Positions 4,744-23,316 of a stretch of DNA of 32,000 nucleotides are shown here, one piece after another. The first letter of the stretch is position 1. Each line of letters opens with the position of its first letter. Below the pieces are notes generated by a model. It saw only the letters and a program-made list of their open reading frames with translations, did not search any database and was not told the DNA's origin. A program made the position numbers and the translations under genes. Origin of the DNA: Erysipelothrix larvae (lineage in GTDB: Bacteria; Bacillota_I; Bacilli_A; Erysipelotrichales; Erysipelotrichaceae); contig NZ_CP013213.1 in the NCBI RefSeq assembly GCF_001545095.1, positions 1,410,001 to 1,442,000 on the forward strand. The letters run 5' to 3'.

Positions 4744-4785
4744 ATTATACTCGATTATTATCATCATTAAATTGATTTGCATCAA
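4744..4785 (-). promoter_or_regulatory. FNR-type box TTGAT-TTGC-ATCAA plus TATAAT -10 (predicted class II promoter of the HMA gene)
   Basis: Perfect 5-4-5 core at 4772-4785 (centre 4778.5). Minus-strand TATAAT at 4749-4744. With a start 7 nt past the hexamer, the box centre is at -41.5. Confidence 0.65.
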
Positions 4786-4807
4786 CAGCTTAATTTGTTG
4801 TTTATTT

Positions 4808-6655
4808 TCATAGTTTGTAGCGTAGCAACCTCATGCCATTTAAAATGACCACTAATATGCTTGCTTCGTGTACTAACATTCCGATTGACATGTTCATCCA
4901 TTCACTAAAGAATACGCTGGCAAGAAGGACTAATACAACCCCTACTGCAATAATAATATTTTGAAGCATGTTATTAGCGGTTGCTTTTGTTAAACCTAAT
5001 GCATGTGGCAAGCGGCTGAAATCTGAATTCATTAAAACAACATCTGAAGTTTCGATTGCTACATCTGTTCCATTTCCCATAGCAATTCCAATTTGTGCTA
5101 GAGCTAGTGAAGGACTATCATTTACTCCATCTCCAACAAATGCCACAATTTGACCTTTTTCTTGTAACTCTTTAATATATGTTGCTTTATCTTCTGGCAA
5201 CATATGTCCATGAGCTTCTGTAAGTCCTAGTTCACGTGCTACTAAATCAACTGTTCCTTGGTTATCACCAGAAAGAACTACTAGATTTTTAACACCAAGT
5301 TTTTTCAACTTTTTAAGATCATCTTTTACACCCGGGCGAATTTGATCACGAATACCCATCAATGCTTTTAATTCACCATCAACTGATGTTAAAACAAGTG
5401 AGTTTCCATTTTTCTCAAATCTGGCAATATCTGCACGAGCTTTTTCACTTAAAAGAATATTTTCTTGCTCCATTAGTGCCACATTACCGACTGCAACTTT
5501 ATGACCTTCTACATGAGCTACAATTCCTCCACCTTTTACAACATCTGTTTTTTCAATTGTATATAATTTTATATCTCCAATATATTCTACAACTGCTTTT
5601 GCTAATGGATGATCTGATTCCTTTTCAACACTTGCTAGATACCCTAATACTTCATATTCATTATCTGCATAAATTTCTTTATCAGCTACTTTGGGATTTC
5701 CTATTGTTAATGTACCTGTTTTGTCAAATACCATGGTATCTAGTCTGCTAAAGTCACTAATAACCTCGCTACCTTTTAGAAGTACTCCATGACGTGCTCC
5801 ATTGCCAATCCCCGCGACGTTTGAAACTGGTACACCGATTACCAATGCTCCTGGACATCCTAAAACTAATATTGTAATTGCAAGTTCAATATCCCTTGAA
5901 AATATCCATACAATAAAAGAGAGAACTAAAACAGCTGGTGTGTAGTATTTAGAAAATCTATCAATGAAACGTTCTGCTTCTGATTTTGAATCCTGTGCTT
6001 CTTCAACCAACTCAATGATTTTACCAAAAGTAGTATCCTCACCTACACGATCAGCAGTGATTTGAATAGTTCCATTTTCTAAAATTGTTCCGGCATATAC
6101 CCCCGAATCTTTCTTTTTACTTACAGGAACCGCTTCTCCTGTAATACTTGCTTCATTAATATACCCTTCTCCTGTTAACACTGTACCGTCAACTGGGATT
6201 TTTGCACCCGTTTTAACAAGCAAAATATCTCCTACATCAACTTCATCTATTTCTACTTCTTCAAACTCACCATTTTTCAGTTGCTTTAGAGCAACTTCAG
6301 GCGCCATTTCAGTTAATTCTTTTATTGCAGAACGTGTTTTATTCAGTGTTCTTTGTTCTAGATAAGCTCCAAATAGAAATAAAAAGGTAACAATTGCTGA
6401 CTCCTCATAATTTCTAATTAGAAACGCGCCAATGACTGCAATGGTCACTAACACATCAATACTGACTACTTTAACTCTGAGTGCTTGATACGCTTGGATG
6501 GCAATCGGTATAACTCCTAAAACAGAGGCAATTATTAGTGACCATATGGCTATAGGTTCGTTTTGAAATCCTAATTTACTAACATATGCAATTATTATTA
6601 AAATTGCACTTACTATTGTAATATGATTCTTTCTTCCTAAAATTAATTTTTGCAT
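4808..6655 (-). CDS. P1B-type heavy-metal translocating ATPase without an N-terminal metal-binding domain
   Basis: TGE (SITGEAVPV), DKTGTLT and GDGVNDSPSLA motifs. Four predicted TM helices lie before the actuator domain and four after. TM6 has CPG (5849-5857) and the last TM has HEAS (4865-4870). Start set at ATG 6655 (GGAAGGAG 7 nt upstream); the track start is 6697. Confidence 0.9.
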   Translation of the reverse strand: MQKLILGRKNHITIVSAILIIIAYVSKLGFQNEPIAIWSLIIASVLGVIPIAIQAYQALRVKVVSIDVLVTIAVIGAFLIRNYEESAIVTFLFLFGAYLEQRTLNKTRSAIKELTEMAPEVALKQLKNGEFEEVEIDEVDVGDILLVKTGAKIPVDGTVLTGEGYINEASITGEAVPVSKKKDSGVYAGTILENGTIQITADRVGEDTTFGKIIELVEEAQDSKSEAERFIDRFSKYYTPAVLVLSFIVWIFSRDIELAITILVLGCPGALVIGVPVSNVAGIGNGARHGVLLKGSEVISDFSRLDTMVFDKTGTLTIGNPKVADKEIYADNEYEVLGYLASVEKESDHPLAKAVVEYIGDIKLYTIEKTDVVKGGGIVAHVEGHKVAVGNVALMEQENILLSEKARADIARFEKNGNSLVLTSVDGELKALMGIRDQIRPGVKDDLKKLKKLGVKNLVVLSGDNQGTVDLVARELGLTEAHGHMLPEDKATYIKELQEKGQIVAFVGDGVNDSPSLALAQIGIAMGNGTDVAIETSDVVLMNSDFSRLPHALGLTKATANNMLQNIIIAVGVVLVLLASVFFSEWMNMSIGMLVHEASILVVILNGMRLLRYKL

Positions 6656-6706
6656 ATTCATACTCCTTCCTATTATGATTTTTATTAATTGTATCACTTG
6701 TTTCTT

Positions 6707-7009
6707 TTATGATTCATATGCTTTATCTAATTCTGCCAACAGGTTATATACTGCTTCATAGCTTTCACAAACATCCTCTGGAACTGTATAATTGTCTGTA
6801 ATTTTACGTAACTTTACAAATTCATCTACTAAGTCAGGTTTTCCCCTTCCTGTATCTTTTAATTTTTTTGCAAGCTTATCATATACTTCACGAACTTGGT
6901 GAAATTCTGGATGATTGCCGCCATGAACTCGTGCTACAACTGGTACATACTGTGCTAATGTTTTTAAATGTGTTTCCTTAACTTGATTAAAATCTAATTT
7001 TTTTGACAT
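6707..7009 (-). CDS. Small RIC/YtfE-like (hemerythrin-fold-like) protein
   Basis: 100 aa. VVARVHGGNHPEF resembles YtfE KVERVHADKP, and NYTVPEDVCESYEAVYNLLAELD resembles YtfE [23 protein letters not shown] (recalled sequence). It lacks the central HxxxE/EEQILFP-type motifs. First gene of the ATPase operon. Confidence 0.55.
   Translation of the reverse strand: MSKKLDFNQVKETHLKTLAQYVPVVARVHGGNHPEFHQVREVYDKLAKKLKDTGRGKPDLVDEFVKLRKITDNYTVPEDVCESYEAVYNLLAELDKAYES
6980..6999. promoter_or_regulatory. Imperfect third FNR-type box inside the 5' end of the RIC-like gene
   Basis: AACTTGAT-TAAA-ATCTAATT matches the 8-4-8 site at 7073-7092: left arm 8/8, right arm 6/8. The two centres are 93 bp apart. 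Confidence 0.35.
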
Positions 7010-7047
7010 GTTTTTTTCCTTCTTTCTTTTTTCTTTGGGTTGATTAC

Positions 7048-7092
7048 ATTATATAAGGGATTAAAAGATATTAACTTGATCTACATCAAGTT
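7048..7092 (-). promoter_or_regulatory. FNR-type box AACTTGAT-CTAC-ATCAAGTT plus TATAAT -10 (predicted class II promoter of the RIC-like/ATPase operon)
   Basis: Perfect 8-4-8 palindrome at 7073-7092 (core TTGAT-N4-ATCAA 7076-7089, centre 7082.5). Minus-strand TATAAT at 7053-7048 places the centre at -41.5 of the predicted start (~7041). SD GAAGGA lies upstream of ATG 7009. Confidence 0.7.
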
Positions 7093-7107
7093 TGTTCTTT
7101 TTACGCA

Positions 7108-7158
7108 GAAAAATAGAACAGTTGGTATTTTTAAATTAATGCCAACTGTTCTATTTTT
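7108..7158 (-). terminator. Strong bidirectional rho-independent terminator after the FNR-like gene
   Basis: Stem AAAAATAGAACAGTTGG (7108-7124) / CCAACTGTTCTATTTTT (7142-7158) is perfectly complementary (17 bp). T-runs flank it on both strands. It lies 18 nt downstream of the stop at 7176. Confidence 0.8.
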
Positions 7159-7175
7159 TATTTTAAGATTATCTG

Positions 7176-7925
7176 CTATATCAGCAACAAACCATCTAAA
7201 TCTAAAATCTCAATCTTTCTGTTTCTTTTTTGCTTTATATAACCTGCCTCTTCAAAATCAGCAAACTTTCTACTTATCGTTTCAGGTGTAGTTCCTAAGT
7301 AAGAGGCTAAATCCTTTCTATTCATTGGCAATTCAATTTCCATTGAACCCTCATCACCATCCAAGCATTCTGCAAGAAACAGCGCTATTCTAGAATCCAC
7401 CTTCTCTGTGGCAAATCTGGTTGTTTGTTTTTCTGATGTTTCCAATCGGTTAGAAAACTCTGATAAGAACTTCAAGGATATCGTAGGGTACTTTAATAAA
7501 AATTCTTGTAAATCATTTTTACTAATCATACACACATCAGTATCACTCATTGCTTCTGCATACGCTTCATGGATTGATTCACGAAACAAAGCAAGTTCTC
7601 CAGTAAAATCTCCTGGATTTAAAATTCTCAATAATTGTTCTTTTCCAGACTCAGATAAACGGTAGATTCTAATTTTACCCTTACTTACAACATATAAGGC
7701 ATTGGATGTATCTCCCTCCCGATAAACCACTTCACCCTTTTTATATGAAATTGACCTCATTACTTTCATAATTTCATCCATCTGTTCTTCTTCTAAATGA
7801 TTAAAGATTGGAACAACACTGATACATGAAGTCTGTGAATCTGAGTTATCTCTGCGATGATGAGTGTGAGAGGAAGTATTACACCCATTCTTTCTTTTGT
7901 CTTGTATAGAATCCTTTTTTGGCAT
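7176..7925 (-). CDS. Crp/Fnr-family transcriptional regulator (FNR-like) with Cys/His-rich N-terminal extension
   Basis: cNMP-binding-type beta-barrel region followed by a C-terminal HTH MNRKDLASYLGTTPETISRKF carrying the FNR E--SR motif (E215, S218, R219). The N-terminus is GC15NTSSH20TH22H23...SC34ISVVPIF, and Cys132 lies in DTDVCMISKNDL. The start ATG abuts the upstream stop (TAAATG). Confidence 0.9.
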   Translation of the reverse strand: MPKKDSIQDKRKNGCNTSSHTHHRRDNSDSQTSCISVVPIFNHLEEEQMDEIMKVMRSISYKKGEVVYREGDTSNALYVVSKGKIRIYRLSESGKEQLLRILNPGDFTGELALFRESIHEAYAEAMSDTDVCMISKNDLQEFLLKYPTISLKFLSEFSNRLETSEKQTTRFATEKVDSRIALFLAECLDGDEGSMEIELPMNRKDLASYLGTTPETISRKFADFEEAGYIKQKRNRKIEILDLDGLLLI

Positions 7926-8165
7926 TTAGATACCCCTTTCATACCTTATTGTGAACTTGTTTATCTTTTCAAAATATTCATGAATCCAGTAAATGCAAGT
8001 AGATTCATACGGAATTGTAATTGGGTTATCGCCATAGCCTAGACTTTCCATAGAATTTTTTAGACGACCTATTTCTTGCTTAAGTCCTCGGATGGCGGTC
8101 ATTATTTCTTCTTTTGTTTTTCCTTTGAGATACTCTTCATAGTGACTTTCCGGACTAATCATCAT
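7926..8165 (-). CDS. Hypothetical 79-aa protein, co-transcribed between the XRE gene and the FNR-like gene
   Basis: AGGAGG 9 nt upstream of the ATG. The stop is directly adjacent to the FNR-like start. No recognisable motif. Confidence 0.6.
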   Translation of the reverse strand: MMISPESHYEEYLKGKTKEEIMTAIRGLKQEIGRLKNSMESLGYGDNPITIPYESTCIYWIHEYFEKINKFTIRYERGI

Positions 8166-8180
8166 ATTAGACTGCCTCCT

Positions 8181-8405
8181 TTATTCGTTAGATATTTTTA
8201 TTTCATCTCCATCTGGTAAAATAAATGCCTGCACAAACTTGACACCTAGCACATCAGCAATGGCCTTCAACTCATCCAAGGTTACCGTTTCACGTTGTAA
8301 TTTCTTATTGAAATTTTGTGGAGTCTGGCCGATACGTCTGGCAAGTTCAGAAACGCTTATATTCATTTGCTCACACAGTTCTTTAATCATTTCTGCCGTA
8401 GTCAT
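8181..8405 (-). CDS. XRE-family helix-turn-helix DNA-binding protein (74 aa)
   Basis: HTH ISVSELARRIGQTPQNFNKKLQR. GGAGG SD upstream. This small HTH type is common on Firmicute mobile elements. Confidence 0.8.
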   Translation of the reverse strand: MTTAEMIKELCEQMNISVSELARRIGQTPQNFNKKLQRETVTLDELKAIADVLGVKFVQAFILPDGDEIKISNE

Positions 8406-8547: not shown

Positions 8548-10110
8548 TCATATTTCCATTTCGATGCCAGATTTGAAGGCTATGACGAAGTGGTCTTCAT
8601 AGACTGTAACGCTCTGGATTATCTTCCTTACAAGCTTATCATCATATTCTAAGGTGCGGAATTTGTTCTTGCGGATAAATTCAATCAGCTCATTGATTCG
8701 CTCGTTCTCGCCACTGAGGGAGGCATCTTCTACTAAAAGGAGCTGTCGCTTGTCTCTCAGCTCATCAATCTCATCTGCTAGGTGTTCATAGTCTTGACCC
8801 TTGTTCGCCAGCTTGATAAGTTCTTTTTGCTTTTCCTCCAGTAAGTTGTTAATCTCTGAAATTTGATACTCTGTGGTTTCACCAATCACAGCATGAATGT
8901 TCTCTTCCAGGGTCTTTATCATGTTGTTGCCACCAGCAAGTAGCTTATTAATTGCGGTCATTACAGCACCATAGAGTTCATCTTCTTTTACGGTTCGGTT
9001 CTTACAAACTTCAGGACCTTGCTCGATTCTAGTCACACATCGCCAGACAAATTCTTTTCTGCCATGAATATTCCAATAGGTTCTCCTATAAATATCGCCA
9101 CAATCTCCACAGAAGGTAATGGCACTTAAAGCGTACTTGCTGCTGTAAATTCTTTTGTTCTTACCTTCTCCTGTGTAGATATTGCTTCTTCGATGAATTT
9201 CCTCCTGCACCTGTAAGAATAATTCTTTGGGAATGATAGCCTCATGGCTATTTTCAACATAATACTGAGGAAGATGACCTTCGTTCTTCACTCGTTTCTT
9301 GGTAAGAAAATCTACTGTGACAGTCTTTTGCAGAAGGGCGTCTCCGATGTATTTTTCGTTTTGAAGGATCTTCTTAACGGATTCTGGTCGCCATCTTGGT
9401 TTTCCTGCTGCTGTTAAAATACCATCCTTTTCAAGACCTCGACCAATGCGCACTAGACTCTGACCTTCAAGGTACTCTCGGTAGATGCGTTTGATAATCT
9501 CAACTTCCTCGGGAACAATGATTAAATTGCCATCTTCATCTTTGGTGTAGCCCATAAATCGTTTATGGTTGACCTGTACCTTTCCTTGTTGGTATCGGTA
9601 CTGAAGTCCAAGTTTAACGTTTTGTGAAAGGCTCTGGCTTTCCTGTTGTGCTAGAGATGCCATAATAGTCAGCAAAACCTCACCTTTGGCATCCATGGTG
9701 TTAATGTTCTCTTTTTCAAAATAGACGGATATGTTCTTATCCTTGAGCTGTCTAATGTATTGAAGACAGTCTAGGGTGTTACGTGCAAATCGGCTGATGG
9801 ATTTTGTAATAACCATGTCGATGTTTCCGTCCATGCACGCTGCAATCATACGATTAAATTCGTCACGCTTTTTGGTGTTCGTACCGGAGATACCATCATC
9901 TGCAAAGATTCCAGCAAACTCCCATTCAGTATTCTTCTTTATAAACTCCGTGTAGTGTGCGACCTGAACCTCATAGCTAGAATTTTGTTCTTCCGTTTCT
10001 GTAGAAACACGGCAATAGGCAGCAACACGAAGTTTCTTTATCTTTTCTTTTGCGGCTGTACTTCCCACTCTTTTACGAGCAGGAATGACCATTATATTTT
10101 TCTCTGTCAC
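8548..10110 (-). CDS. Large serine recombinase (integrase), copy 2
   Basis: Resolvase catalytic domain ([25 protein letters not shown]), recombinase domain, Zn ribbon (CGDCG...C...C) and C-terminal coiled coil. GTG start 1 nt after the upstream stop, with GAGGA SD. Confidence 0.9.
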
Positions 10111-10111
10111 T

Positions 10112-10528
10112 TTATTCCTCGCTTTCTATCAGACTGTATAAGTATTCTGCTCGTTCAAAAGGATCCACGGGCATCTTATTATCTGCCTTTTTCATTTTGA
10201 ATCGTTCTTTGGGAGGGGGAGAGGTAAAAGCGGCAAGCTCTACCACTCGTCCTAAATCCTTTGCACGTTTATCTCTAACTTCTTCAGCTTTATCAAATAT
10301 CTCTTTATCAATAATTGCTGGATACGTATCATTTCCAAGGTAGTTGACGTTTTTCAAAATACGTCCCATTACTGAGTGTGTCTTATCAATACCTGCCTGT
10401 TCGCCAGCCACTGTAAGGGATAGTCCTGATATGTATTTCTCAAAGAATACCTTTACTTGACCTGCTGCCTTTTCATCGACAGTAACCACTCCGTCTTGAA
10501 TTTTGTATCCATATGGAATATATGCCAT
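10112..10528 (-). CDS. Recombinase-domain-only protein (no catalytic resolvase domain, no Zn ribbon)
   Basis: 138 aa beginning [35 protein letters not shown]...[10 protein letters not shown]...[12 protein letters not shown]. This is the pattern that follows the catalytic domain in large serine recombinases. The ATG is immediately adjacent to the upstream TAA. Confidence 0.7.
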
Positions 10529-12094
10529 TTATCTCACCACCTTTTCTTTCAGGGAAAGACCGCATTTCAAATTGAATGTCAGCTCATCCCTGGAATTTAC
10601 AATGATGTTCTCTACAAATTCTTCAAATAGTTCTTCCGTGTAGTCACCATTAAAATTATCTGCTGACACATAATTAATGAGGTCCTTTATATCGTTTGCT
10701 CGTAAAACCCCACTCGTAGAGTTCGTTACCAGGTTTGTTTTTTCAGTTGTAAGATTTTTTATCTCACTATCCAAGACATTACGTTCCTGATTAAAAAGAG
10801 CTGGCTCAAGGAAACCTTTGGCCATCAGTGTAATAAGGGTGTTGCGTTCTTCCATGAGTTGCTCCATTCGCTTATCAATAGCATCCATTCTTTCACGGTC
10901 GCTTTCTTCATCAATTTGGCTAATTGATTTGAATAGCGGTTCTAAGATTAGCTTATGACTGAAAGCAAGCTTATTCATCATGGTTGTCAATGTGGCTTTT
11001 ATTTCTCCATCTCGCAAGAACAACATGGAGCAACTCTCTTTGTCTTCGATATGACCGATGCAACTCCAAGCAATGTAACTCCTACCAGCTGAGTAGTTTG
11101 TCTTTCTCCTAAAATTGCGACCACACTCTCCACAGACAATCTTGCCACTTAAAGCATATCGATTAAGATAAACGTTCTTTTTCACGCCCTTACACTTCAT
11201 CTTGGCTCTTTCATCAATGAGATCTTGTGCCTTAGCAAAGTCTTCTCTACTTATAATAGGTTCATGATTGTCCTTGTAATAGTACTGGTCTTTTTCACCT
11301 GTATTCGAATGGCGGTTGTAGTTACTATCAGTGTAGGTCTTTTGTAACAAAACATCTCCCATGTATTTTTCGTTTCGGAGCATGTCTATCACCGTGCCTG
11401 CACTCCAGTGATTACCTCTTCTTGCTGGGATTTTGTCTTTGTTCAAACCTCTTGCTATAGTACCTCCACCTTTCCCTGAAAGGCACTCAGTAAAAATACG
11501 TTTGATGATTTCTGCTTCTTCTGGGACGATTACCATTTCACCATCTGTATTGGTGTAGCCGTAGGGTGGAGTACCAACATAACTGCCATTTTGAAATCTC
11601 TTTTGAATGGACCATGTTGAGTTTTGTGAAATAGATGCAGACTCTTCTGCAGCAAACCCTGAAAGAATAGAAAGCATCAGTTCACTTTCCATATCACCCG
11701 TATTTAGATTCTCTTTTTCAAAATAAATATAAACACCGATATCAATCAGTTTTCTTACTAACTCTAGACAATCTACTGTATTACGAGCAAAGCGGCTGAT
11801 TGATTTGGTGATAATAAAATCAATCCGACCTTGCTTACAATCTCGTATCATACGGAGCAGTTCAGTCCGTTTCTCCATCTTGGTGCCGGAGATCCCTTCG
11901 TCATAATAAAGACCAGCAAATACCCATTCTGGATTAGACTTAATATAGCGCTCATAGTGTTCACGCTGTGCTTTAAGGCTTTCAAGCTGTTCATCACTAT
12001 CGGTTGAGACCCTGGCATAGGCGGCAACCCTAAGTTTCGTATTAGGTAGTTGTCCCTGGGGCAGTTCATCTATTTTTGTTATCTTTTTCATCAT
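10529..12094 (-). CDS. Large serine recombinase (integrase), copy 1
   Basis: LRVAAYARVSTDSDEQ catalytic Ser motif, [10 protein letters not shown], recombinase domain (PPYGYTNTDGEMVIVPEEAEIIKRIF), Zn ribbon (CGECG...C...C) and coiled-coil tail. GAGGTGA SD. Confidence 0.9.
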   Translation of the reverse strand: MMKKITKIDELPQGQLPNTKLRVAAYARVSTDSDEQLESLKAQREHYERYIKSNPEWVFAGLYYDEGISGTKMEKRTELLRMIRDCKQGRIDFIITKSISRFARNTVDCLELVRKLIDIGVYIYFEKENLNTGDMESELMLSILSGFAAEESASISQNSTWSIQKRFQNGSYVGTPPYGYTNTDGEMVIVPEEAEIIKRIFTECLSGKGGGTIARGLNKDKIPARRGNHWSAGTVIDMLRNEKYMGDVLLQKTYTDSNYNRHSNTGEKDQYYYKDNHEPIISREDFAKAQDLIDERAKMKCKGVKKNVYLNRYALSGKIVCGECGRNFRRKTNYSAGRSYIAWSCIGHIEDKESCSMLFLRDGEIKATLTTMMNKLAFSHKLILEPLFKSISQIDEESDRERMDAIDKRMEQLMEERNTLITLMAKGFLEPALFNQERNVLDSEIKNLTTEKTNLVTNSTSGVLRANDIKDLINYVSADNFNGDYTEELFEEFVENIIVNSRDELTFNLKCGLSLKEKVVR

Positions 12095-12152
12095 CTCACC
12101 TCGCTTTCGCCCATTACATACATCACTCTAAAAGCTATTAATAGCAAGCTTT

Positions 12153-12368
12153 TTAGAACATAATCTCGGCTAAACGGGGAGAAAATTTCTGCCTGTTCAA
12201 GGCTGATATTTTGTGTAATTCATCCGCTGTGATTTTGCCTTCTTTATATAGGTTTGCGACAATACTCTCTGCTATGTGAAAGTCATATTCCTTTTGCAGT
12301 TCTTCCTCTGTCATCTGCTCGGTTTTGCCCTTTAAAGGACAGCCGTCTTTTACTTCATAAATGTTCAT
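12153..12368 (-). CDS. Hypothetical 71-aa protein heading the recombinase operon (possible recombinase accessory factor)
   Basis: ATG 12368 with GGAGGT SD 8 nt upstream (MNIYEVKDGCPLKGK...KITADELHKISALNRQKFSPRLAEIMF). The longer track version (to 12467) overlaps the polymerase 3' end and was rejected. Confidence 0.6.
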   Translation of the reverse strand: MNIYEVKDGCPLKGKTEQMTEEELQKEYDFHIAESIVANLYKEGKITADELHKISALNRQKFSPRLAEIMF

Positions 12369-12407
12369 AGAAAAACACCTCCTACCTAGTAGCCACGGCA
12401 GGAGGTG
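12369..12407 (-). terminator. Intrinsic terminator whose 3' arm is the SD of the next ORF
   Basis: Minus-strand RNA CACCUCCUGCC-guggcuacua-GGUAGGAGGUG-UUUUUCU-AUG forms an 11-bp stem. One pair is G-U on this strand but an A-C mismatch on the other. It starts 16 nt after the polymerase stop codon. Confidence 0.65.
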
Positions 12408-12421
12408 AAATCTGATGGTTT
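12382..12421 (-). repeat. Conserved intergenic repeat, copy A
   Basis: Aligns with 16676-16715 as identical blocks of 13 (CTACCTAGTAGCC), 3, 7 (GAGGTGA), 7 (AATCTGA) and 5 (GGTTT) nt, with 2 mismatches and two 3-nt indels. Same orientation. Confidence 0.8.
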
Positions 12422-12423
12422 TA

Positions 12424-14364
12424 TTAATCTTTTTGATAAAAGTCACATTCATAGCCATCGGCATCAAGTAGCAGCCCTTTTGCCCAAGGTGGCACTTGAC
12501 TCATCTGTTTACATACTTCAGTAACCGATATTTGAGGATTCGCTTCAATAATTACTTCATCATGGACATGAGCCACAATAGGATAAGTACTAAGCATCTT
12601 CATTGAATACATCAAAATATCACGGGAGATGGCTTGAACAATATTCTCTACAAACTTAGGACCGTAACTTTCAAGACGCTCCCATTTCTTTGTTCCACCT
12701 ACTCCTTCATAGGTAACAGACTCACCACCAAACTGATTCTCACCAATTCGAGGTTTTACATAGGCAAGCCTTCTGCCGGAGGGAAGAACGATAAAAAGCA
12801 TGCCACTAAGACAATGAAACTCGATGCCATGGGTTTCTTGTGATTTATTTTCCTTTACGCATTGTTTAGCCGCCCGATCTACATCCCACCAGAACTGTGT
12901 GATGTTGGGATTAGACATTCTCCAGGCATTCACAAGCGGTTTTAATTCTTCCTCTTCAAGCCCCATCTCTAATGCGCCCATGGCTTTTAATGCACCAACA
13001 GAACCACCATAGCCAAGTGCCAATTCAGCAATTTTACCCTTCTGTCTCAAGTGACCGTTCACACCATGCTTTTCAACGGAAACACCAAACATCTGTGAGG
13101 CAGATGCACAGTAGATATCACCACCACTAGCAAATACATCCGTTCGCCATGTCTCACCTGCAAGCCATGAAAGCACACGAGCCTCAATGGCTGAAAAGTC
13201 AGCCACAATAAACTTATGACCAACTCTTGGTACAAAGGCTGTACGAATTAGTTGTGAGAGTGTATCGGGTATATCTTCATAGAGCAGTTCTAGTGTTTCA
13301 ACATCACCATTTCTGACAATAGTTCGCGCCTCTTTTAAATCTGGCATATGGTTCTGAGGGAGATTTTGCAATTGCACAAGCCTACCGGCAAAGCGACCGG
13401 TTCTGTTAGCTCCATAAAACTGAAACATTCCCCTGGCGCGAGAATCTGCACAAACCGCATTTTCCATTGCTGTATATTTCTTTACCGAGGATTTTGCCAG
13501 TTGCTGACGAAGTGAAAGAACTTCATTTAGTTCACCATCTGTTTCCTCAAGTTTCTCAGCGACAGCCTTTTTCCCGAGTGTCTCCATCTCTAGACCGTTA
13601 TCTGAAAGCCAGCCTTTCATCTGTTGTACGGAGTTTGGGTTTTCGAGATGTGTTATCTGCTGCATGGCGGTTAGTAGTTTTTCATGAGAGATGTCATCCA
13701 TAGCGATGGCCTGCTTAACAAAATCCATATCCACCTTTATGCCTCGATCGTTAATTTCTTGGTCGAGATGATACTCATCCCAGATGTCCTCTGGCACTGG
13801 AAACTTGATCAATCTTTGTTGTATCTGGATTTCTGCCTCCACATCACGCTTGTTATATGCTTTAAACTGCTGCCATTTATCTCTTTCATCGGTTGGCAAA
13901 TTACGAGTTCTACCACCATTTATTTTTGTTGGAGTACATGGAAGACAAAAATATCGTATCAGGTCTTTACCCTCCGTCAGCTTTTGCTTTTCAAGGCCTA
14001 GCACTGCACCTACACCTTCTAAAGAAAGAGGAAGTCCCATATAGGCAGACCAAACCATGGAACATTTCCATGAGGAAGGATTTAGATAAGTCCCAGTGGG
14101 ATAGCCCAAATAACGTGAAAGGCATACTCGCTCAAACTGAGCATTAAATGCCCACTTCGTAATGGTTTCATCGGTTAAGGCATCTAGGATTTCTTTTGGA
14201 ATCTTTTCTCCATTCATCAAATCGATGACCTTAACTTCATCACCGTCAACCGCATAACCAAACAGCATCACCTCAAAATCATCTGCTTCTACGTAACGAT
14301 AAACACCACTTTTTTGTAGATTGGTAGATGAATAGGTTTCGATATCAATTTCTAAGTTCTTCAT
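12424..14364 (-). CDS. Family A DNA polymerase (phage PolA-like, with 3'-5' exonuclease domain)
   Basis: Exo I DIETYS; motif A IVADFSAIEARVLSWLA; motif B RQKGKIAELALGYGG; motif C VAHVHDEVIIE. Start set at ATG 14364 (AAGGTGG 6 nt upstream); the track start at 14478 overlaps the upstream gene. Confidence 0.92.
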   Translation of the reverse strand: MKNLEIDIETYSSTNLQKSGVYRYVEADDFEVMLFGYAVDGDEVKVIDLMNGEKIPKEILDALTDETITKWAFNAQFERVCLSRYLGYPTGTYLNPSSWKCSMVWSAYMGLPLSLEGVGAVLGLEKQKLTEGKDLIRYFCLPCTPTKINGGRTRNLPTDERDKWQQFKAYNKRDVEAEIQIQQRLIKFPVPEDIWDEYHLDQEINDRGIKVDMDFVKQAIAMDDISHEKLLTAMQQITHLENPNSVQQMKGWLSDNGLEMETLGKKAVAEKLEETDGELNEVLSLRQQLAKSSVKKYTAMENAVCADSRARGMFQFYGANRTGRFAGRLVQLQNLPQNHMPDLKEARTIVRNGDVETLELLYEDIPDTLSQLIRTAFVPRVGHKFIVADFSAIEARVLSWLAGETWRTDVFASGGDIYCASASQMFGVSVEKHGVNGHLRQKGKIAELALGYGGSVGALKAMGALEMGLEEEELKPLVNAWRMSNPNITQFWWDVDRAAKQCVKENKSQETHGIEFHCLSGMLFIVLPSGRRLAYVKPRIGENQFGGESVTYEGVGGTKKWERLESYGPKFVENIVQAISRDILMYSMKMLSTYPIVAHVHDEVIIEANPQISVTEVCKQMSQVPPWAKGLLLDADGYECDFYQKD

Positions 14365-14369
14365 AGCTA

Positions 14370-14396
14370 CCACCTTTCCTAAATGAAAAAAGGTGG
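14370..14396 (-). promoter_or_regulatory. SD-sequestering hairpin in front of the polymerase gene
   Basis: Minus-strand RNA CCACCUUU-uuucauuuagg-AAAGGUGG-uagcu-AUG. The 8-bp stem has the polymerase SD as its 3' arm, and no U-tract follows. Confidence 0.4.
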
Positions 14397-14437
14397 CAGA
14401 GGGAAGACCTCCACCACCGTCAAGTTTATTGTTTCTA

Positions 14438-14989
14438 TTAGGCAAGGAAGTCATCATCGACAAGAGTCGTAAAATCATCTACTGCAGAAGTCTTACCGCC
14501 TAGAGGTTCTCCGTCTCTAATTTTTTGAATGTTACCAAGACCACAAGCTACACCTTTATTACCATTTGAGTTGAAAGCATAGAAGTTAAGAGAAACCCTG
14601 CCATAACAACCGCTATACACCTCACTGCGATCCATAATCGGCTTAACACTTTTATCTACAATCTGTGGCGCTGTCTTGCTATTTGCATTGATGAAGTAAT
14701 GGCCTTTATAAGCCTCATCATCACGCTCTACATCACCATCACGCAGCGGTAGTTTAATGGCTGCCTTATTTGGTTTCTTACCACCAAACTTTGCGATACC
14801 TTCCTCAATGGCAGCATCAACTGCTGCATGGATAGCATTAATGGTTTCCTTGTCATCCTTTGGAATAAGGACGGAAACGCTGTACTTTTCTGCACCACCA
14901 TTAATAGATACAGGCTCCCATCCGTGGAAGTAAGAAAATCTTGAGTTTACACCTGTGATAACTTTTGTTTTGTTTTGCATATTTGCCAT
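14438..14989 (-). CDS. DUF2815-like phage single-stranded DNA-binding protein
   Basis: 183 aa ending in the acidic tail TLVDDDFLA, reminiscent of SSB tips. It sits in the conserved position between the DUF2800-like nuclease and PolA seen in Firmicute phage replication modules. Confidence 0.75.
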   Translation of the reverse strand: MANMQNKTKVITGVNSRFSYFHGWEPVSINGGAEKYSVSVLIPKDDKETINAIHAAVDAAIEEGIAKFGGKKPNKAAIKLPLRDGDVERDDEAYKGHYFINANSKTAPQIVDKSVKPIMDRSEVYSGCYGRVSLNFYAFNSNGNKGVACGLGNIQKIRDGEPLGGKTSAVDDFTTLVDDDFLA

Positions 14990-14994
14990 AATAT

Positions 14995-16131
14995 TTAATC
15001 CTCCATAATTTCGTTAAATTCGTTTTTAGCATTTACTACGTTAATCGCCGGTCTTTTATCCGAATTGGGAACAAGAGTCGGCTTGCCCGGTGGTTTGTAA
15101 ATGAAGTCACCGAGGAGTTCCTCAAACTTGGCTTTACCCATCAGTTTTTGCATCTCTGTCATCGGAATAAGGCTCTTTCTGTAAATATCCTTATATCCAC
15201 CTGCTACAGCTTTTTCTGCGATGGCTTCTTCATCTTTATACTTACGAACCGAGCGACCTTCCACAACTTTAAAACCATTCCACTCTTTACCGTGATTGAC
15301 TGCTGCATCAGTGGCATAGGCAGTTATTTCATTTGCCCATTTGGTAAGGTCGGGAAGAATAAGTAAGATTTCTTCTATTTCAGCATCCGTCAGAAGAGGT
15401 GGCATCTTGAATTCTTTCTCAGCAAGTTTTAGTTTTTCTTCGGCTCTAGCCCTACATTTGTTTGCCGCTTTACAGAAGGTACACCATGGACCGGGGATGT
15501 ATTCACCCTCACCGTTGAAGGCTTTGACAGCTCTGGGCTTTAGTTCCTCTTCAGCCCAGTCTTTTAGTTCTTCCACCGGTATTGTCCAGGTGCTGACATT
15601 CTCTCTTCTAGGCTGAAAGATCGTCATGGACACTTCTTTGATGTCGTACAGGTGATCATAGATTCCAAGTGCTCCTAGGGCATACAGTTTCATCTGTGGA
15701 TTGTCCACGGCATCAACTAGCACACCCAGTCCATATTTAAAGTCTACGATGTGAAGTCTGTCATCTGAAATGATTACACAGTCTCCTGTCCCAAAACCAT
15801 CTGGAACATAACAAGAGAAGTCAAGACGTTGTTCAATAAGAACGATAGGATCTGTGCAAGACTTTCTTGCAAGTTCCACCTGCTCCATAACAAAGTCCAC
15901 GTAAGCATCTGTACATTCCTCCATCTCATCAGAGTTATACTCAGAGACAGGTCGCTGACTTCTCATATGAAGTGCCTTTTTTAGTTTGTGTTCACACAGG
16001 TCATGAGCCGCTGTGCCTTCTTTTGCTGCCTCACCACTTTGGTCTTCAAACTCCAGTTCAAGTCTTGCAGAGGGTAGGCAGTTAAGCCACCTGTGGGATG
16101 AGGATGCAGATAATATTGCATGATTACCCAT
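14995..16131 (-). CDS. DUF2800-like PD-(D/E)XK (Cas4-like) nuclease
   Basis: ILSASSSHRWLNC N-terminus, acidic/Lys nuclease core (DCVIISDDRLHIVDFKYG) and a C-terminal Cys cluster (WCTFCKAANKC). Start set at ATG 16131 (GGAGGG SD), overlapping the upstream stop as ATGGGTAA. Confidence 0.75.
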   Translation of the reverse strand: MGNHAILSASSSHRWLNCLPSARLELEFEDQSGEAAKEGTAAHDLCEHKLKKALHMRSQRPVSEYNSDEMEECTDAYVDFVMEQVELARKSCTDPIVLIEQRLDFSCYVPDGFGTGDCVIISDDRLHIVDFKYGLGVLVDAVDNPQMKLYALGALGIYDHLYDIKEVSMTIFQPRRENVSTWTIPVEELKDWAEEELKPRAVKAFNGEGEYIPGPWCTFCKAANKCRARAEEKLKLAEKEFKMPPLLTDAEIEEILLILPDLTKWANEITAYATDAAVNHGKEWNGFKVVEGRSVRKYKDEEAIAEKAVAGGYKDIYRKSLIPMTEMQKLMGKAKFEELLGDFIYKPPGKPTLVPNSDKRPAINVVNAKNEFNEIMED

Positions 16132-16441
16132 TCCCAAGACCCTCCGCATCTTTCAAGATGTCAGCATAATACGCCTTATCAATAGCACTTAACTTGTCTG
16201 CACCATACTTCTGAATGAGTCCTCGCACTTCGGTGGTAAATCCAAGCTGGCTCTTTTCAGCAAGTACCATACGCACTTTTTCCAGTGGGATATCTGGCTC
16301 TTTTACTGGTTCTTGTTCAGTTACAGCTTTTGCACTTGGAGTAGGATCTCCTTCTGTCATCGCATCGCAAACTGCCTGTATGCTGTCAGCAAGACTTCGC
16401 ATATCATTGACCACTTCAAGCAGTAGCTTTATTTTGCTCAA
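16124..16441 (-). CDS. Hypothetical phage protein (105 aa)
   Basis: TTG start with AAAGGAGGA 7 nt upstream. Conserved-looking C-terminus VLAEKSQLGFTTEVRGLIQKYGADKLSAID. Translationally coupled to its neighbours. Confidence 0.6.
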   Translation of the reverse strand: MSKIKLLLEVVNDMRSLADSIQAVCDAMTEGDPTPSAKAVTEQEPVKEPDIPLEKVRMVLAEKSQLGFTTEVRGLIQKYGADKLSAIDKAYYADILKDAEGLGNG

Positions 16442-16634
16442 GGTCAGTTCCTCCTTTCGTCATTTCACAGATAGAGAGTTCCTCGATGCTGTCTCCAGGG
16501 ATCACAATCGTTACACGCTGTTTACTCCCTAAAAGAAAGCGAAGAATTCGTTCCCTTACGGACAAATTACGGCAGGTAACAAGTCCGCCTGTCTGTGGTT
16601 TCTTAGAAACACTAATTTTGAGATTGTGTTTCAT
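16416..16634 (-). CDS. Hypothetical phage protein (72 aa), first ORF of the replication module
   Basis: ATG 16634 with GAGGTG 6 nt upstream (MKHNLKISVSKKPQTGGLVTCRNLSVRERILRFLLG...). The track start at 16643 overlaps the SD. Confidence 0.55.
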   Translation of the reverse strand: MKHNLKISVSKKPQTGGLVTCRNLSVRERILRFLLGSKQRVTIVIPGDSIEELSICEMTKGGTDLEQNKATA

Positions 16635-16675
16635 ATCCATCACCTCTTTCCAAAGGGCGATTTATTTCTTGCCCT

Positions 16676-16715
16676 CTACCTAGTAGCCTCGGGAGGTGAT
16701 AGAATCTGACGGTTT
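16676..16715 (-). repeat. Conserved intergenic repeat, copy B
   Basis: See copy A. It lies between the lysis-cassette terminator and the first replication-module ORF. Its AUCACCUC (16700-16693) is complementary to the downstream SD region GAGGUGAU (16646-16639). Confidence 0.8.
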
Positions 16716-16716
16716 A

Positions 16717-16759
16717 GAAAAAAAGAAAGCCTACCAAAGAGAAATACTCCTTGATAGGC
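16717..16759 (-). terminator. Rho-independent terminator of the lysis cassette
   Basis: Minus-strand RNA GCCUAUCAAGGAG-uauuu-CUCUUUGGUAGGC forms a 13-bp stem with two G-U pairs, followed by UUUCUUUUUUU. It lies ~15 nt after the endolysin stop. Confidence 0.8.
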
Positions 16760-20996: not shown

Positions 20997-21109
20997 TGTA
21001 TTTGTTAATCTAAAAGTGGGCCAATTCTCAATTGAAAACTGGTCCACTATTTTTATAACTTCAGAAGTGTGTGATAATGCTTTTGGAGGTGAAAGAGGTG
21101 ATATCACAA

Positions 21110-22558
21110 ATGAGCAAATATTCAATTATCACATTAAAAAAGAAAGGATGGTCCAACAGAAAGATTGCCCTTGAATTGGGTATAGACCGAAAGACGGTCG
21201 CACGGTATCTTCAGGAATATAATAAATGTCAAATACAATTGATTGATAATCATGATTTATCAGACGAAAGAAAAGTAGAAGTCATTGATCAAATTGTTGG
21301 GGACCGTCACTATGATGCAAGCAAACGAGGTAAGCGCAAGTTAACGCAAGAAATTCAAGCACGCATCATTGAAATTATGGATTCAGAAAAAGATAAAGAT
21401 ATGTTACTAGGAAGACATCATAAGCAAAAGTTAACAGTCACTCAAATTTTTGAAATTATCAAAAGCGAGGGACATGATATTGGTCAGACAACCATACGAA
21501 ATTTTGTGCATGAAATTCAAGCTTCACGAGAAACATTTATTCGACAAGATTATCGATATGGTGAGCGGTTAGAGTTTGACTTTGGAGAAGTAAAGCTTTT
21601 AATTAATGGTGAACCAAGAACATATTATCTCGCTGTTTTCTCATCACCAGCAAGCGGATATCGGTATGCATATTTATATCCAAACCAACGCAAACAAGTA
21701 TTCATAGATGCACATGTTCGCTTCTTTGAGCATTCTAAAGGCTCTTGGGGTGAAGTTGTATATGACAATATGAGAAACGTCGTGAAGCGCTTTATAACGC
21801 CTTATGAAAAAGAAATTAATGATGATTGCCTCAAACTGGCACTCTATTATAATTTTGAAATTAACCTGACTAATATACGAAGTGGTCATGAAAAAGGAAG
21901 TGTAGAAAACAGTGTTAAGGTAATTCGAAATCGTGTATTCGCAAAGGACTATAAGTTTGAAACATTTGAAGAGGCATGTGTTCATCTTGAACAGACTCTT
22001 GATGAAATCAATATAAAGAGTTCAATCGAAGATGAAAAGAAAGAACTTCAACCTTACAGAATTCCTTATGAATTCGCTGATATCGAAGTATATAGTGTTG
22101 ACAAGTATGGTTGTATACACGTTGAAAATAATTTTTATTCAGTCCCAGACTATCTCCAACACAAAAGAGTTACGGTCAAAAACACCGTAAATTCGATACG
22201 CATCTATTCAAATCACACATTTGTGTACGAACATAAAAAGATAGATGGTCATCATCAATATCAGCTTGTGTTGGACCACTATCTGAATACAATGATGACT
22301 AAGCCGGGATCTGTAAAGAATTCACTTGTCCTAAAACAACATCCTGAGCTTTATAACATCTACCATAATCATTATAAAACAAGAACTAAAGAGTTCATAG
22401 AAATTCTTCAAGAAAACAGGAATGAAACGTATAAAACGCTCAAAGATGCTTTAAAGTATCGGTTGGTTTCAAATACAATTGACACCGTTGAGTATGATGA
22501 CAGCATACAAGAACAATCACGTAAACAACTTAAGAAAATAAGCCAATTAATGCACTAG
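21110..22558 (+). CDS. istA: IS21-family transposase IstA
   Basis: N-terminal HTH (GWSNRKIALELGIDRKTVARYLQEY) followed by a DDE-type core. It sits upstream of an IstB-like gene. Start set at ATG 21110 (AGAGGTG 9 nt upstream). Confidence 0.9.
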   Translation: MSKYSIITLKKKGWSNRKIALELGIDRKTVARYLQEYNKCQIQLIDNHDLSDERKVEVIDQIVGDRHYDASKRGKRKLTQEIQARIIEIMDSEKDKDMLLGRHHKQKLTVTQIFEIIKSEGHDIGQTTIRNFVHEIQASRETFIRQDYRYGERLEFDFGEVKLLINGEPRTYYLAVFSSPASGYRYAYLYPNQRKQVFIDAHVRFFEHSKGSWGEVVYDNMRNVVKRFITPYEKEINDDCLKLALYYNFEINLTNIRSGHEKGSVENSVKVIRNRVFAKDYKFETFEEACVHLEQTLDEINIKSSIEDEKKELQPYRIPYEFADIEVYSVDKYGCIHVENNFYSVPDYLQHKRVTVKNTVNSIRIYSNHTFVYEHKKIDGHHQYQLVLDHYLNTMMTKPGSVKNSLVLKQHPELYNIYHNHYKTRTKEFIEILQENRNETYKTLKDALKYRLVSNTIDTVEYDDSIQEQSRKQLKKISQLMH

Positions 22559-22569
22559 GAGATAAATTA

Positions 22570-23316
22570 ATGGAAACAATTGAACAATTGTCAAAAGAAT
22601 TAAAACTTTCATTCATAAAAACACACTATGAAGCAGCAATACAGGAAGCGAAACACAAAGGATTGGATTTTCAAGAATTTCTTAACGAACTGCTTTATTG
22701 CGAACGAAACAATCGTCGTGACAACGGAATAAAACAACGCATTCGTGCTGCTCGATTTCCTCAAAACAAGACATTGGAGGATTTTACGACTGTAAAATTT
22801 AATTCAGAATTAAAACGAAAGTTTAAAGAACTGGAAACATTGAACTTTATAGAAAATAAAGAAAACATTATCTTAATGAGTAATCCTGGAATGGGAAAAA
22901 CACATTATGCGACCGCACTTGGAATCAAAGCTTGTCTAGAAAATAAAAAAGTGCTATTTATCAGCGTTCCTAATCTAATTATAGAGTTAAAAGAAGCTAT
23001 GTCAAAAAATCAAATTACGCAATACAAAAAGAAGTTTGAAAAATTTGATCTAGTAATTCTTGATGAACTCGGCTATGTATCATTTGATAAAGAAGGAAGT
23101 GAAATTCTATTCAATCTAATCTCAAATAGAATAACAGTGGGCTCTATGATTATTACAACAAATTTAATGTTCGATAGATGGGAAGAAATATTCAAAGACC
23201 CCATTCTAACAACTGCTCTAGTCGACCGCTTAACCTATAAATCACATCTATTAAATATGAGTGGAGAGAGTTATCGTGTTGAAGAAACAATTGCTTGGCT
23301 AAAGAGCAAAGAATGA
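22570..23316 (+). CDS. istB: IS21-family ATP-binding helper IstB
   Basis: Walker A NPGMGKTH, Walker B LVILDELGY, 248 aa. It starts 11 nt after istA, with a GGAG SD. Confidence 0.92.
   Translation: METIEQLSKELKLSFIKTHYEAAIQEAKHKGLDFQEFLNELLYCERNNRRDNGIKQRIRAARFPQNKTLEDFTTVKFNSELKRKFKELETLNFIENKENIILMSNPGMGKTHYATALGIKACLENKKVLFISVPNLIIELKEAMSKNQITQYKKKFEKFDLVILDELGYVSFDKEGSEILFNLISNRITVGSMIITTNLMFDRWEEIFKDPILTTALVDRLTYKSHLLNMSGESYRVEETIAWLKSKE

Follow-up and report, generated by a model that had tools for sequence, protein, structure and literature searches.

We analyzed a repeated element of about 50 bp in a prophage of Erysipelothrix larvae, two copies of which lie in a 32,000-nt stretch of contig NZ_CP013213.1 (positions 1,410,001 to 1,442,000), referred to here as the window and providing the coordinates used below unless stated otherwise. 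Judged from sequence, each copy is probably, if by a narrow measure, a promoter, or a promoter plus an activator site, of RNA polymerase carrying the prophage's own divergent sigma factor, which resembles the extracytoplasmic function (ECF) type and belongs to the protein family phrog_11138. The repeat is functional, being one of the three sites of a small regulon of the phage that is linked to this uncharacterized sigma-like family. The sequences show the anatomy of the element, its conservation, its tie to the sigma-like gene, and the pattern of rearrangement; sigma activity, the start site of transcription, and the gating of translation are inferred. A first-pass annotation of the window had described a conserved direct repeat at 12382-12421 (copy A) and 16676-16715 (copy B) in the same orientation, and we confirmed both the coordinates and the matches, with both copies on the minus strand. 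The same annotation had taken the two copies as a pair bracketing the phage replication module; there are in fact three copies, and the sigma-like gene, the partner by which they are defined, is located beyond the window.

On the minus strand both copies in the window have the form AAACCRTCAGATT-N14-GGCTACTAGGTAG, with N14 denoting a 14-nt spacer: copy A reads AAACCATCAGATT TCACCTCCTGCCGT GGCTACTAGGTAG and copy B reads AAACCGTCAGATT CTATCACCTCCCGA GGCTACTAGGTAG. The 5' block, AAACCRTCAGATT, matched exactly at both copies and nowhere else in the window, and the 3' block, GGCTACTAGGTAG, occurred exactly twice, the expected number of window matches with up to two mismatches being 0.27. Whereas the two copies had originally been aligned with two 3-nt indels, these cancel, so that the repeat stands as ungapped blocks exactly 14 nt apart in both copies with a spacer of divergent sequence. 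The conservation profile extends beyond the blocks to an A/T-rich TTT...AAA stretch immediately 5' of the 5' block and to the purines after TAG (RRGG); when the blocks are taken as the hexamers CAGATT and TACTAG, 17 nt separate them. No conserved pairing of the 5' block with the 3' block or with the downstream coding sequence was found. Two other descriptions of the element were rejected, namely an ECF-style register AAC...N16-17...CGT, for which the spacing is 20 nt and the bases vary across groups, and an RNA hairpin CTAC-NNN-GTAG within the 3' block, which is broken by variants such as GGCTAATAGATAG and GGCTTATAAGTAG.

The 13-mer was found three times in the 2.5-Mb genome (37% GC). The third copy (copy C; G000:C1:1460109-1460148, minus strand) lies in the same prophage, 33 kb upstream, and overlaps the stop codon of a 182-amino-acid (aa) protein with sigma-70 region 4, the phrog_11138 member; it is followed by genes for a Bro-N/KilAC antirepressor, a DUF7768 protein, and a primase. 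All three copies are co-oriented with the genes that follow them, on the coding strand, 12-45 nt before start codons. A genome-wide scan with a 52-column weight matrix built from relatives returned three sites at 70-75 bits and a next best site of 1.7 bits, and the regulon of this genome is closed, with exactly three sites, all in one prophage. In the stretches compared, Streptococcus phage Javan630 and that prophage are collinear, and Javan630 has the same three copies.

The element recurs in hundreds of related prophage loci across Bacillota, and in relatives it stands at the same junctions, recurrence at module junctions having been proposed earlier as a check. Scanning viral contigs for the exact pattern gave 71 loci, many with two or three copies, and the ∼4.29-kb spacing of copies A and B recurred in most metagenomic contigs holding both. 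When a looser pattern allowed a spacer of 13-15 nt, 218 of 219 matches had exactly 14 nt, and N14 was kept across at least 62 distinct cores, all junction classes, and the most distant relatives. Further loci, chosen through the small protein encoded 3' of copy B and drawn from many Bacillota genera, gave more diverged versions such as TCAACTT-N14-GGCTAATAGATAG. The named relatives are Javan630, phi1605, Javan422, and the NatCom Ruminococcus phages. The exact 13-mer had no match in the literature, no published consensus was found to match the block pair TCAGATT-N14-GGCTAYYAGGTAG, and no paper describing the element was found in the literature on DUF2800/DUF2815/sigma, Heliusvirales, and phi1207.3/phi-m46.1. 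Rfam 15 gave no gathering-level match in the window and, in a search up to E 10, only chance-level matches (E ≥0.2) around copies A and B.

The distribution of the element is bound to that of the sigma-like gene. A motif copy was present on the 3' end of this gene in all 59 loci holding it, and in 80 of 80 viral-contig loci that were picked by protein alignment alone to avoid picking by motif, two of the 80 having a one-base variant of the last block. Even the two database phages examined whose sigma-like protein is only 30-33% identical keep the motif with N14, as TCCTTTT-N14-GGCTACCAGGTAG in NatCom_3870 and TCCGATT-N14-GGCTACCTAGTAG in Javan422. In a Bacillus/Clostridium subgroup the open reading frame (ORF) of the sigma-like gene crosses the motif in a different frame, with its stop within GGC-TAA; the constraint is therefore on the nucleotides and not on coding. 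The variant of the 5' block (TCAGATT, TCCAATY, or TCAACTT) is common to all copies of one phage: NatCom_38182 has three TCAGATT copies, NatCom_28274 three TCCAATY copies, and one Bacillus-type prophage three TCAACTT copies. The predicted sigma-4 recognition helix differs with the block, being ENNITQKLKRA for TCAGATT, KSAISHRLDTA for TCAACTT, RGTVYKRLQRA for TCCAATC, and ANTVSHRYRRA for TCCTTTT. Such concerted variation would be expected of a private trans-acting factor and its sites.

Members of phrog_11138 are 177-189 aa long, and their function is listed as unknown in PHROGs. The only Pfam match was Sigma70_r4_2, at 26.1 bits against a cut-off of 25.7, and the NCBIfam superfamily model for sigma70-ECF, TIGR02937, scored 31.9-34.6 bits, below its cut-off of 42.9, over profile positions 69-164 of 165. 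AlphaFold2 modeled a C-terminal four-helix domain with confidence, and the best Foldseek hits were nearly all sigma factors or isolated sigma-4 domains (SigB, SigL, RpoE, BldN, sigma-E, and AlgU among them), mostly of the ECF type. A profile search of the PDB with the alignment of the family gave weak sigma-4 matches only. We term the protein sigma-like, with a putative sigma-2 region.

The need for a promoter is clearest at copy B. The lysin gene ends in an intrinsic terminator immediately before this copy, and a promoter and terminator scan found no sigma-A-type promoter between that terminator and the first replication gene. The layout of terminator followed by copy is the same in relatives; copy B and the copies that stand between lysin and SHOCT genes in a sister group begin 2-13 nt after a strong terminator, without a sigma-A-type promoter before the next gene. 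At copy B the replication genes must be served by a promoter, and no conserved sequence other than the motif is there to provide it. That this promoter would be read by a sigma factor is suggested by the anatomy of the element, since two non-palindromic blocks at a rigid spacing need two different reading modules. The A/T-rich stretch before the 5' block, the 17 nt between the two hexamers, the purines after TAG, and the hairpin at a fixed offset (see below) likewise suit a promoter.

We propose that the helix-turn-helix of the sigma-4 domain reads the 5' block (TCAGATT in the phage of the window) and that the N-terminal domain reads GGCTA..AG.TAG exactly 14 nt beyond it, with transcription starting at the purines near ...TAG|RRGG. 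Expression would then run as a cascade, in which expression of the sigma gene comes first, after which the copy on the 3' end of that gene switches on the antirepressor/primase operon, copy B the replication module, and copy A the operon of SHOCT and serine recombinase genes. About 45 nt 5' of the start of the sigma-like gene is a terminator-like hairpin with a 12-bp stem and a T-run (G000:C1 ∼1460726-1460756, minus strand), which could be an attenuator on entry into such a cascade.

The same ∼50 bp at three operon heads has also left a mark on genome organization. Three left flanks and three right flanks of the element are joined differently in two phage groups, that of the window and a sister Bacillus/Clostridium group. 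The 3' end of the sigma-like gene is joined to the antirepressor leader in the window group and to the leader of phrog_7234 (the first replication gene) in the Bacillus/Clostridium group; the lysin terminator is joined to the phrog_7234 leader and the SHOCT leader, respectively; and the 3' end of the PolA gene is joined to the SHOCT leader and the antirepressor leader, respectively. In the sister group the replication module thus follows the sigma-like gene and precedes the antirepressor, and does not lie between lysin and the SHOCT-recombinase operon. All three junctions fall inside motif copies, and the pattern is what would result if the genes phrog_7234 through PolA were shifted as one block from one junction to another, with breakpoints within the motif. 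Because the copies share this sequence, we conclude that recombination between them moved the module during the evolution of this phage group, which explains the odd place of replication genes after lysis genes. The earlier proposal of a module-boundary sequence for cassette exchange accordingly holds as an evolutionary outcome, although exchange does not look like the primary function of the element.

Several features are found at the level of RNA. At copy A an 11-bp stem, in which CACCUCCUGCC pairs with GGUAGGAGGUG, had been noted before and is real (region -25 kcal/mol, z = -5.4 against shuffled sequences); this hairpin, H1, resembles a terminator after the PolA gene, and its 3' arm is the Shine-Dalgarno (SD) sequence GGAGGUG of the SHOCT gene. 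H1 has the stable stem, the U5 run, and the position shortly 3' of the PolA stop that characterize intrinsic terminators, and it went unlisted in the terminator scan because its 10-nt loop exceeds the 3-8 nt limit of that scan. Across 24 A- and C-type sequences, 89% of cells in the H1 alignment are paired, a share that falls to 36-57% if the partners are displaced by 1-3 columns, and 0 of 500 shuffles reached 89%; the outermost pair (alignment columns 9 and 40) is CG in 12 sequences, GC in 4, UA in 3, and AU in 1. At copy B there is complementarity between AUCACCUC (16693-16700) and the SD region GAGGUGAU (16639-16646), and the stem that had been proposed there does appear in the minimum-energy fold, but that fold is no better than those of shuffled sequences (z = -0.85). 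In the predicted read-through fold of copy C, the spacer pairs with GGAGGUCAA and the next CCUCC pairs with the true SD (z = -3.8). The pairing of spacer with SD that the first-pass annotation had pointed to is stronger than composition explains: the mean duplex energy is -12.4 kcal/mol, whereas it is -8.6 when the spacers are shuffled and -10.9 when the partners are permuted (0 of 200 for either control). A second hairpin, H2, is formed by UAGAGGGC, 12 nt, and GCCCUUUG, and starts inside the end of the copy B 3' block. A hairpin is present at one fixed offset in all but ∼3 of 86 distinct non-A instances, with stems that differ (GAGGGC/GCUCUC, GGAGGU/ACCUCC, GAAGG/CCUUC, GGGGCG/CGCCCC, GGAGC/GUUCC), as would be expected of a 5'-terminal stabilizing stem-loop, which we propose H2 to be.

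We propose that these features come on top of a promoter. The pyrimidine-rich spacer resembles the 3' end of 16S rRNA, that is, an anti-SD sequence, and would be present only in transcripts entering from upstream, in which the SD of the following gene would be masked by it; at copy A it would also form a terminator. Transcripts initiated at the element would lack the spacer and would begin with the 5' hairpin at copies B and C and with the SD at copy A. The element might thus be a dual DNA and RNA device, a private phage-sigma promoter whose spacer masks the SD in read-through transcripts (with termination in addition at copy A), so that only sigma-started transcripts are translated. We offer this extended version tentatively and consider it rather doubtful; if true, it would constitute a translational gate that depends on the start site and insulates each operon from read-through.

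Several observations weigh against a sigma-dependent promoter. The blocks resemble no known -35 or -10 consensus, so that any assignment of -35 and -10 bases within them is provisional. The N-terminal helical domain of the sigma-like protein was poorly modeled (predicted local distance difference test score, pLDDT, 40-74) and had no above-threshold match to any sigma region-2 model, and the Foldseek E-values were only 0.01-0.3. Shared ancestry is a confounder for the match of the recognition helix with the 5' block. No terminator precedes the copy at the sigma-like gene, so the genes downstream of it could share the upstream transcript. Finally, the spacer is C/U-rich and, unusually, conserved, and at copies A and C the 3' block lies within real RNA stems; both features would suit a purely RNA element as well.

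Such an element would be a cis-acting RNA leader transcribed from upstream, in which a hairpin of spacer and purine tract shows GGCUA..AG.UAG as a loop beside the single-stranded 5' block, and through which a bound factor, be it a protein of phage or host or an RNase, controls termination, processing, or translation of the next operon. The four kinds of compensatory change at a single H1 pair, together with G-U pairs that work only on this strand, the folding of copies A and C far beyond that of shuffles, the excess complementarity of spacer and SD, and the hairpin at a fixed offset after the motif all favor it. Nevertheless, we consider a leader of this kind unlikely. At copy B and, in the sister group, at the copies between lysin and SHOCT, a strong terminator lies so close before the element, with no promoter between, that the 5' block would rarely be transcribed, yet it is equally conserved; H1 is out of register or absent in class B, and the fold of copy B is not significant; no conserved pairing involves the 5' block; and no Rfam family matches. 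An exact N14 with variable spacer sequence is typical of protein-DNA recognition, and the tie to a protein with a helix-turn-helix sigma-4 domain likewise points to DNA. The conservation of GGCUACUAGGUAG, which had been assigned to an RNA loop, is better explained if this block is recognized as DNA and has to keep its set distance from the 5' block. Of the roles suggested earlier, it is the protein-binding site co-regulating two operons that comes closest to the reading we favor.

The binding protein need not form an alternative holoenzyme, and the element could instead be the DNA operator of a conventional regulator, with the sigma-4-like protein as activator or repressor, comparable to the stoperators of mycobacteriophage L5, which are asymmetric and orientation-specific. 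Only the sigma-4-like helix-turn-helix domain is recognized with confidence, the 5' block co-varies with it, and the few sites, which lack symmetry and point in the direction of transcription, are located at operon heads. However, two unlike, non-palindromic blocks at rigid spacing over ∼50 bp call for two DNA-reading modules, as in sigma-2 plus sigma-4, no host-type promoter is present at copy B for an operator to act on, and the best structural neighbors are nearly all sigma-4 domains or sigma factors, of which several are full-length; we regard an operator as quite improbable. Least plausible of all, and in our judgment very improbable, is a primary role in recombination, with the copies as sites for the two serine recombinases or as linkers dedicated to module exchange, through which the 4.3-kb replication cassette would be excised or moved. 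The module is indeed flanked by direct repeats, and the sister phages hold it at another junction with breakpoints in the motif. But the element has neither the dyad symmetry nor the central-dinucleotide architecture of serine-recombinase att sites, its 5' and 3' blocks not being reverse complements, and each phage has three co-oriented direct copies, all of them associated with a start codon, an SD, and a leader hairpin, where one attP per element would be expected; on these grounds nothing speaks for the secondary recombination site that had been suggested. Furthermore, one copy is always on the sigma-like gene, loss of the replication genes would be lethal for the phage, and the rearrangements are rare, occurring between lineages and not as polymorphisms among close relatives; the A-to-B spacing, as noted, recurs in most contigs with both copies.

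Phage-encoded alternative sigma factors with cognate middle or late promoters are well known, as in gp28 and gp33/34 of Bacillus phage SPO1 and in ECF regulons, and a phage sigma factor with cognate promoters is thus of a known kind, to which the element and phrog_11138 would be an addition. What would be shared with these systems is a small phage protein of the sigma family, short bipartite promoters of rigid spacing that depart from the host consensus, and few copies that head operons and so form a cascade. In contrast to them, phrog_11138 is uncharacterized with only its sigma-4 part recognizable, a copy always overlaps the 3' end of the sigma gene itself, and the spacer would double as an anti-SD. 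Mosaic temperate phages have short conserved intergenic linkers where modules exchange, and the element resembles these in being a short conserved sequence at module junctions, with the same module at a different junction in relatives, but differs in its evident regulatory anatomy and its dedicated trans-factor gene, so that exchange looks like a by-product. Copy A, with its stem and U5 after a polymerase gene burying GGAGGUG, is like SD-sequestering hairpins and intrinsic terminators; unlike in terminators, its loop and arms are conserved beyond what termination needs, and the same sequence is found at two other sites without a U-run. As repeated, co-oriented elements of ∼40-70 nt at operon heads with a single-stranded box and a hairpin, the copies also recall lambda nut and HK022 put sites. 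Those sites, however, lie 3' of a promoter and 5' of terminators, whereas copy B directly follows a terminator with no promoter between, and the element has no boxA-like sequence and no Rfam match.

The analysis provides a concrete candidate function and a candidate DNA target for the phrog_11138 family, which is carried by prophages across Bacillota with clostridia, bacilli, streptococci, and Erysipelothrix as hosts. Candidatus Heliusvirales gut phages may belong with these prophages, but we do not claim membership of that group or of the group of phi1207.3/phi-m46.1. Some of the relatives, such as Javan630, carry antibiotic-resistance cargo. A promoter at copy B would account for early expression of a replication module placed after the lysis genes, and the phages represent a clean case of module shuffling with breakpoints inside a repeated regulatory element. 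The protein variants paired with TCAGATT, TCAACTT, TCCAATY, TCCTTTT, and TCCGATT could serve as orthogonal expression switches in Gram-positive hosts. The features of the element and its surroundings are collected in the table.

Table. Features of the two element copies in the window and of the neighboring genes (all positions are those of the window).
Feature	Position	Strand	Remarks
Copy B, full conserved element, ∼52 nt (A/T-rich upstream part, 5' block, 14-nt spacer, 3' block, RRGG)	16670..16721	-	weight-matrix 72.2 bits; conservation profile
Copy B 5' block AAACCGTCAGATT, which the sigma-4 domain is proposed to read as a -35-like target	16703..16715	-	
Copy B 14-nt pyrimidine-rich spacer CTATCACCTCCCGA	16689..16702	-	
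Copy B 3' block GGCTACTAGGTAG, candidate for the -10-like block with the start region	16676..16688	-	
Hairpin H2	16651..16678	-	-10.1 kcal/mol, z = -2.3
Copy A, full conserved element, beginning at the DNA polymerase stop codon	12376..12427	-	weight-matrix 75.2 bits
Copy A 5' block AAACCATCAGATT	12409..12421	-	
Copy A 3' block GGCTACTAGGTAG	12382..12394	-	
Hairpin H1, 11-bp stem (12397-12407 with 12376-12386) and U5 (12371-12375)	12371..12407	-	fold and covariation
Intrinsic terminator of the lysin gene, 13-bp stem and T-run	16718..16759	-	ends 2 nt before copy B
Replication module 3' of copy B: phrog_7234 (ATG 16634), phrog_408, DUF2800 PD-(D/E)XK exonuclease, Enc34/Gp2.5-like single-stranded DNA-binding (SSB)-annealing protein, family-A DNA polymerase	12424..16634	-	
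Operon 3' of copy A	8548..12368	-	
SHOCT_2 protein, operon 3' of copy A	12153-12368	-	
Large serine recombinase, operon 3' of copy A	10529-12094	-	
138-aa recombinase-domain ORF, operon 3' of copy A	10112-10528	-	
Second large serine recombinase, operon 3' of copy A	8548-10110	-	

Some relatives showed unusual arrangements of the element. An Aerococcaceae prophage (L152 ∼5835-5990) has two motif copies in tandem, ∼80 nt apart, before its phrog_7234 gene, the one reading TCCTTTC...GGCTACTCGTTAG and the next TCCTTTT...GGCTAAACGATAG. At G003:C2:199610-199643 (L082/L257), a copy of another subtype, TCAATTC...GGCTATTAAGTAG, stands before a SHOCT gene 1.6 kb from a copy B of the TCAGATT type, with a Crp/Fnr-like gene upstream and an apparent holin downstream in place of the recombinase; this site may be the junction of two elements. 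Near-identical prophage fragments (L097, L098, and L105; 91-93% protein identity) occurred in metagenome-assembled genomes labeled Francisellaceae, Cytophagales, and Micrarchaeota, which are probably binning contaminants and not true hosts.

Within the otherwise tightly packed replication module, the sole terminator-like signal is a hairpin at 14392-14418 on the minus strand (11-bp stem, 7 GC pairs, T6) between the SSB-like and polymerase genes. Elsewhere in the window, two plus-strand ORFs of 495 and 248 aa (21071-23316) interrupt the minus-strand tail and lysis region. Genes for aminoglycoside and spectinomycin adenylyltransferases follow the recombinase operon of Javan630 (42349-46580 of that phage), and the equivalent place in the window (4744-8405) is taken by an FNR-type regulator and a metal-pump locus; the cargo or flank beside the recombinases therefore varies.

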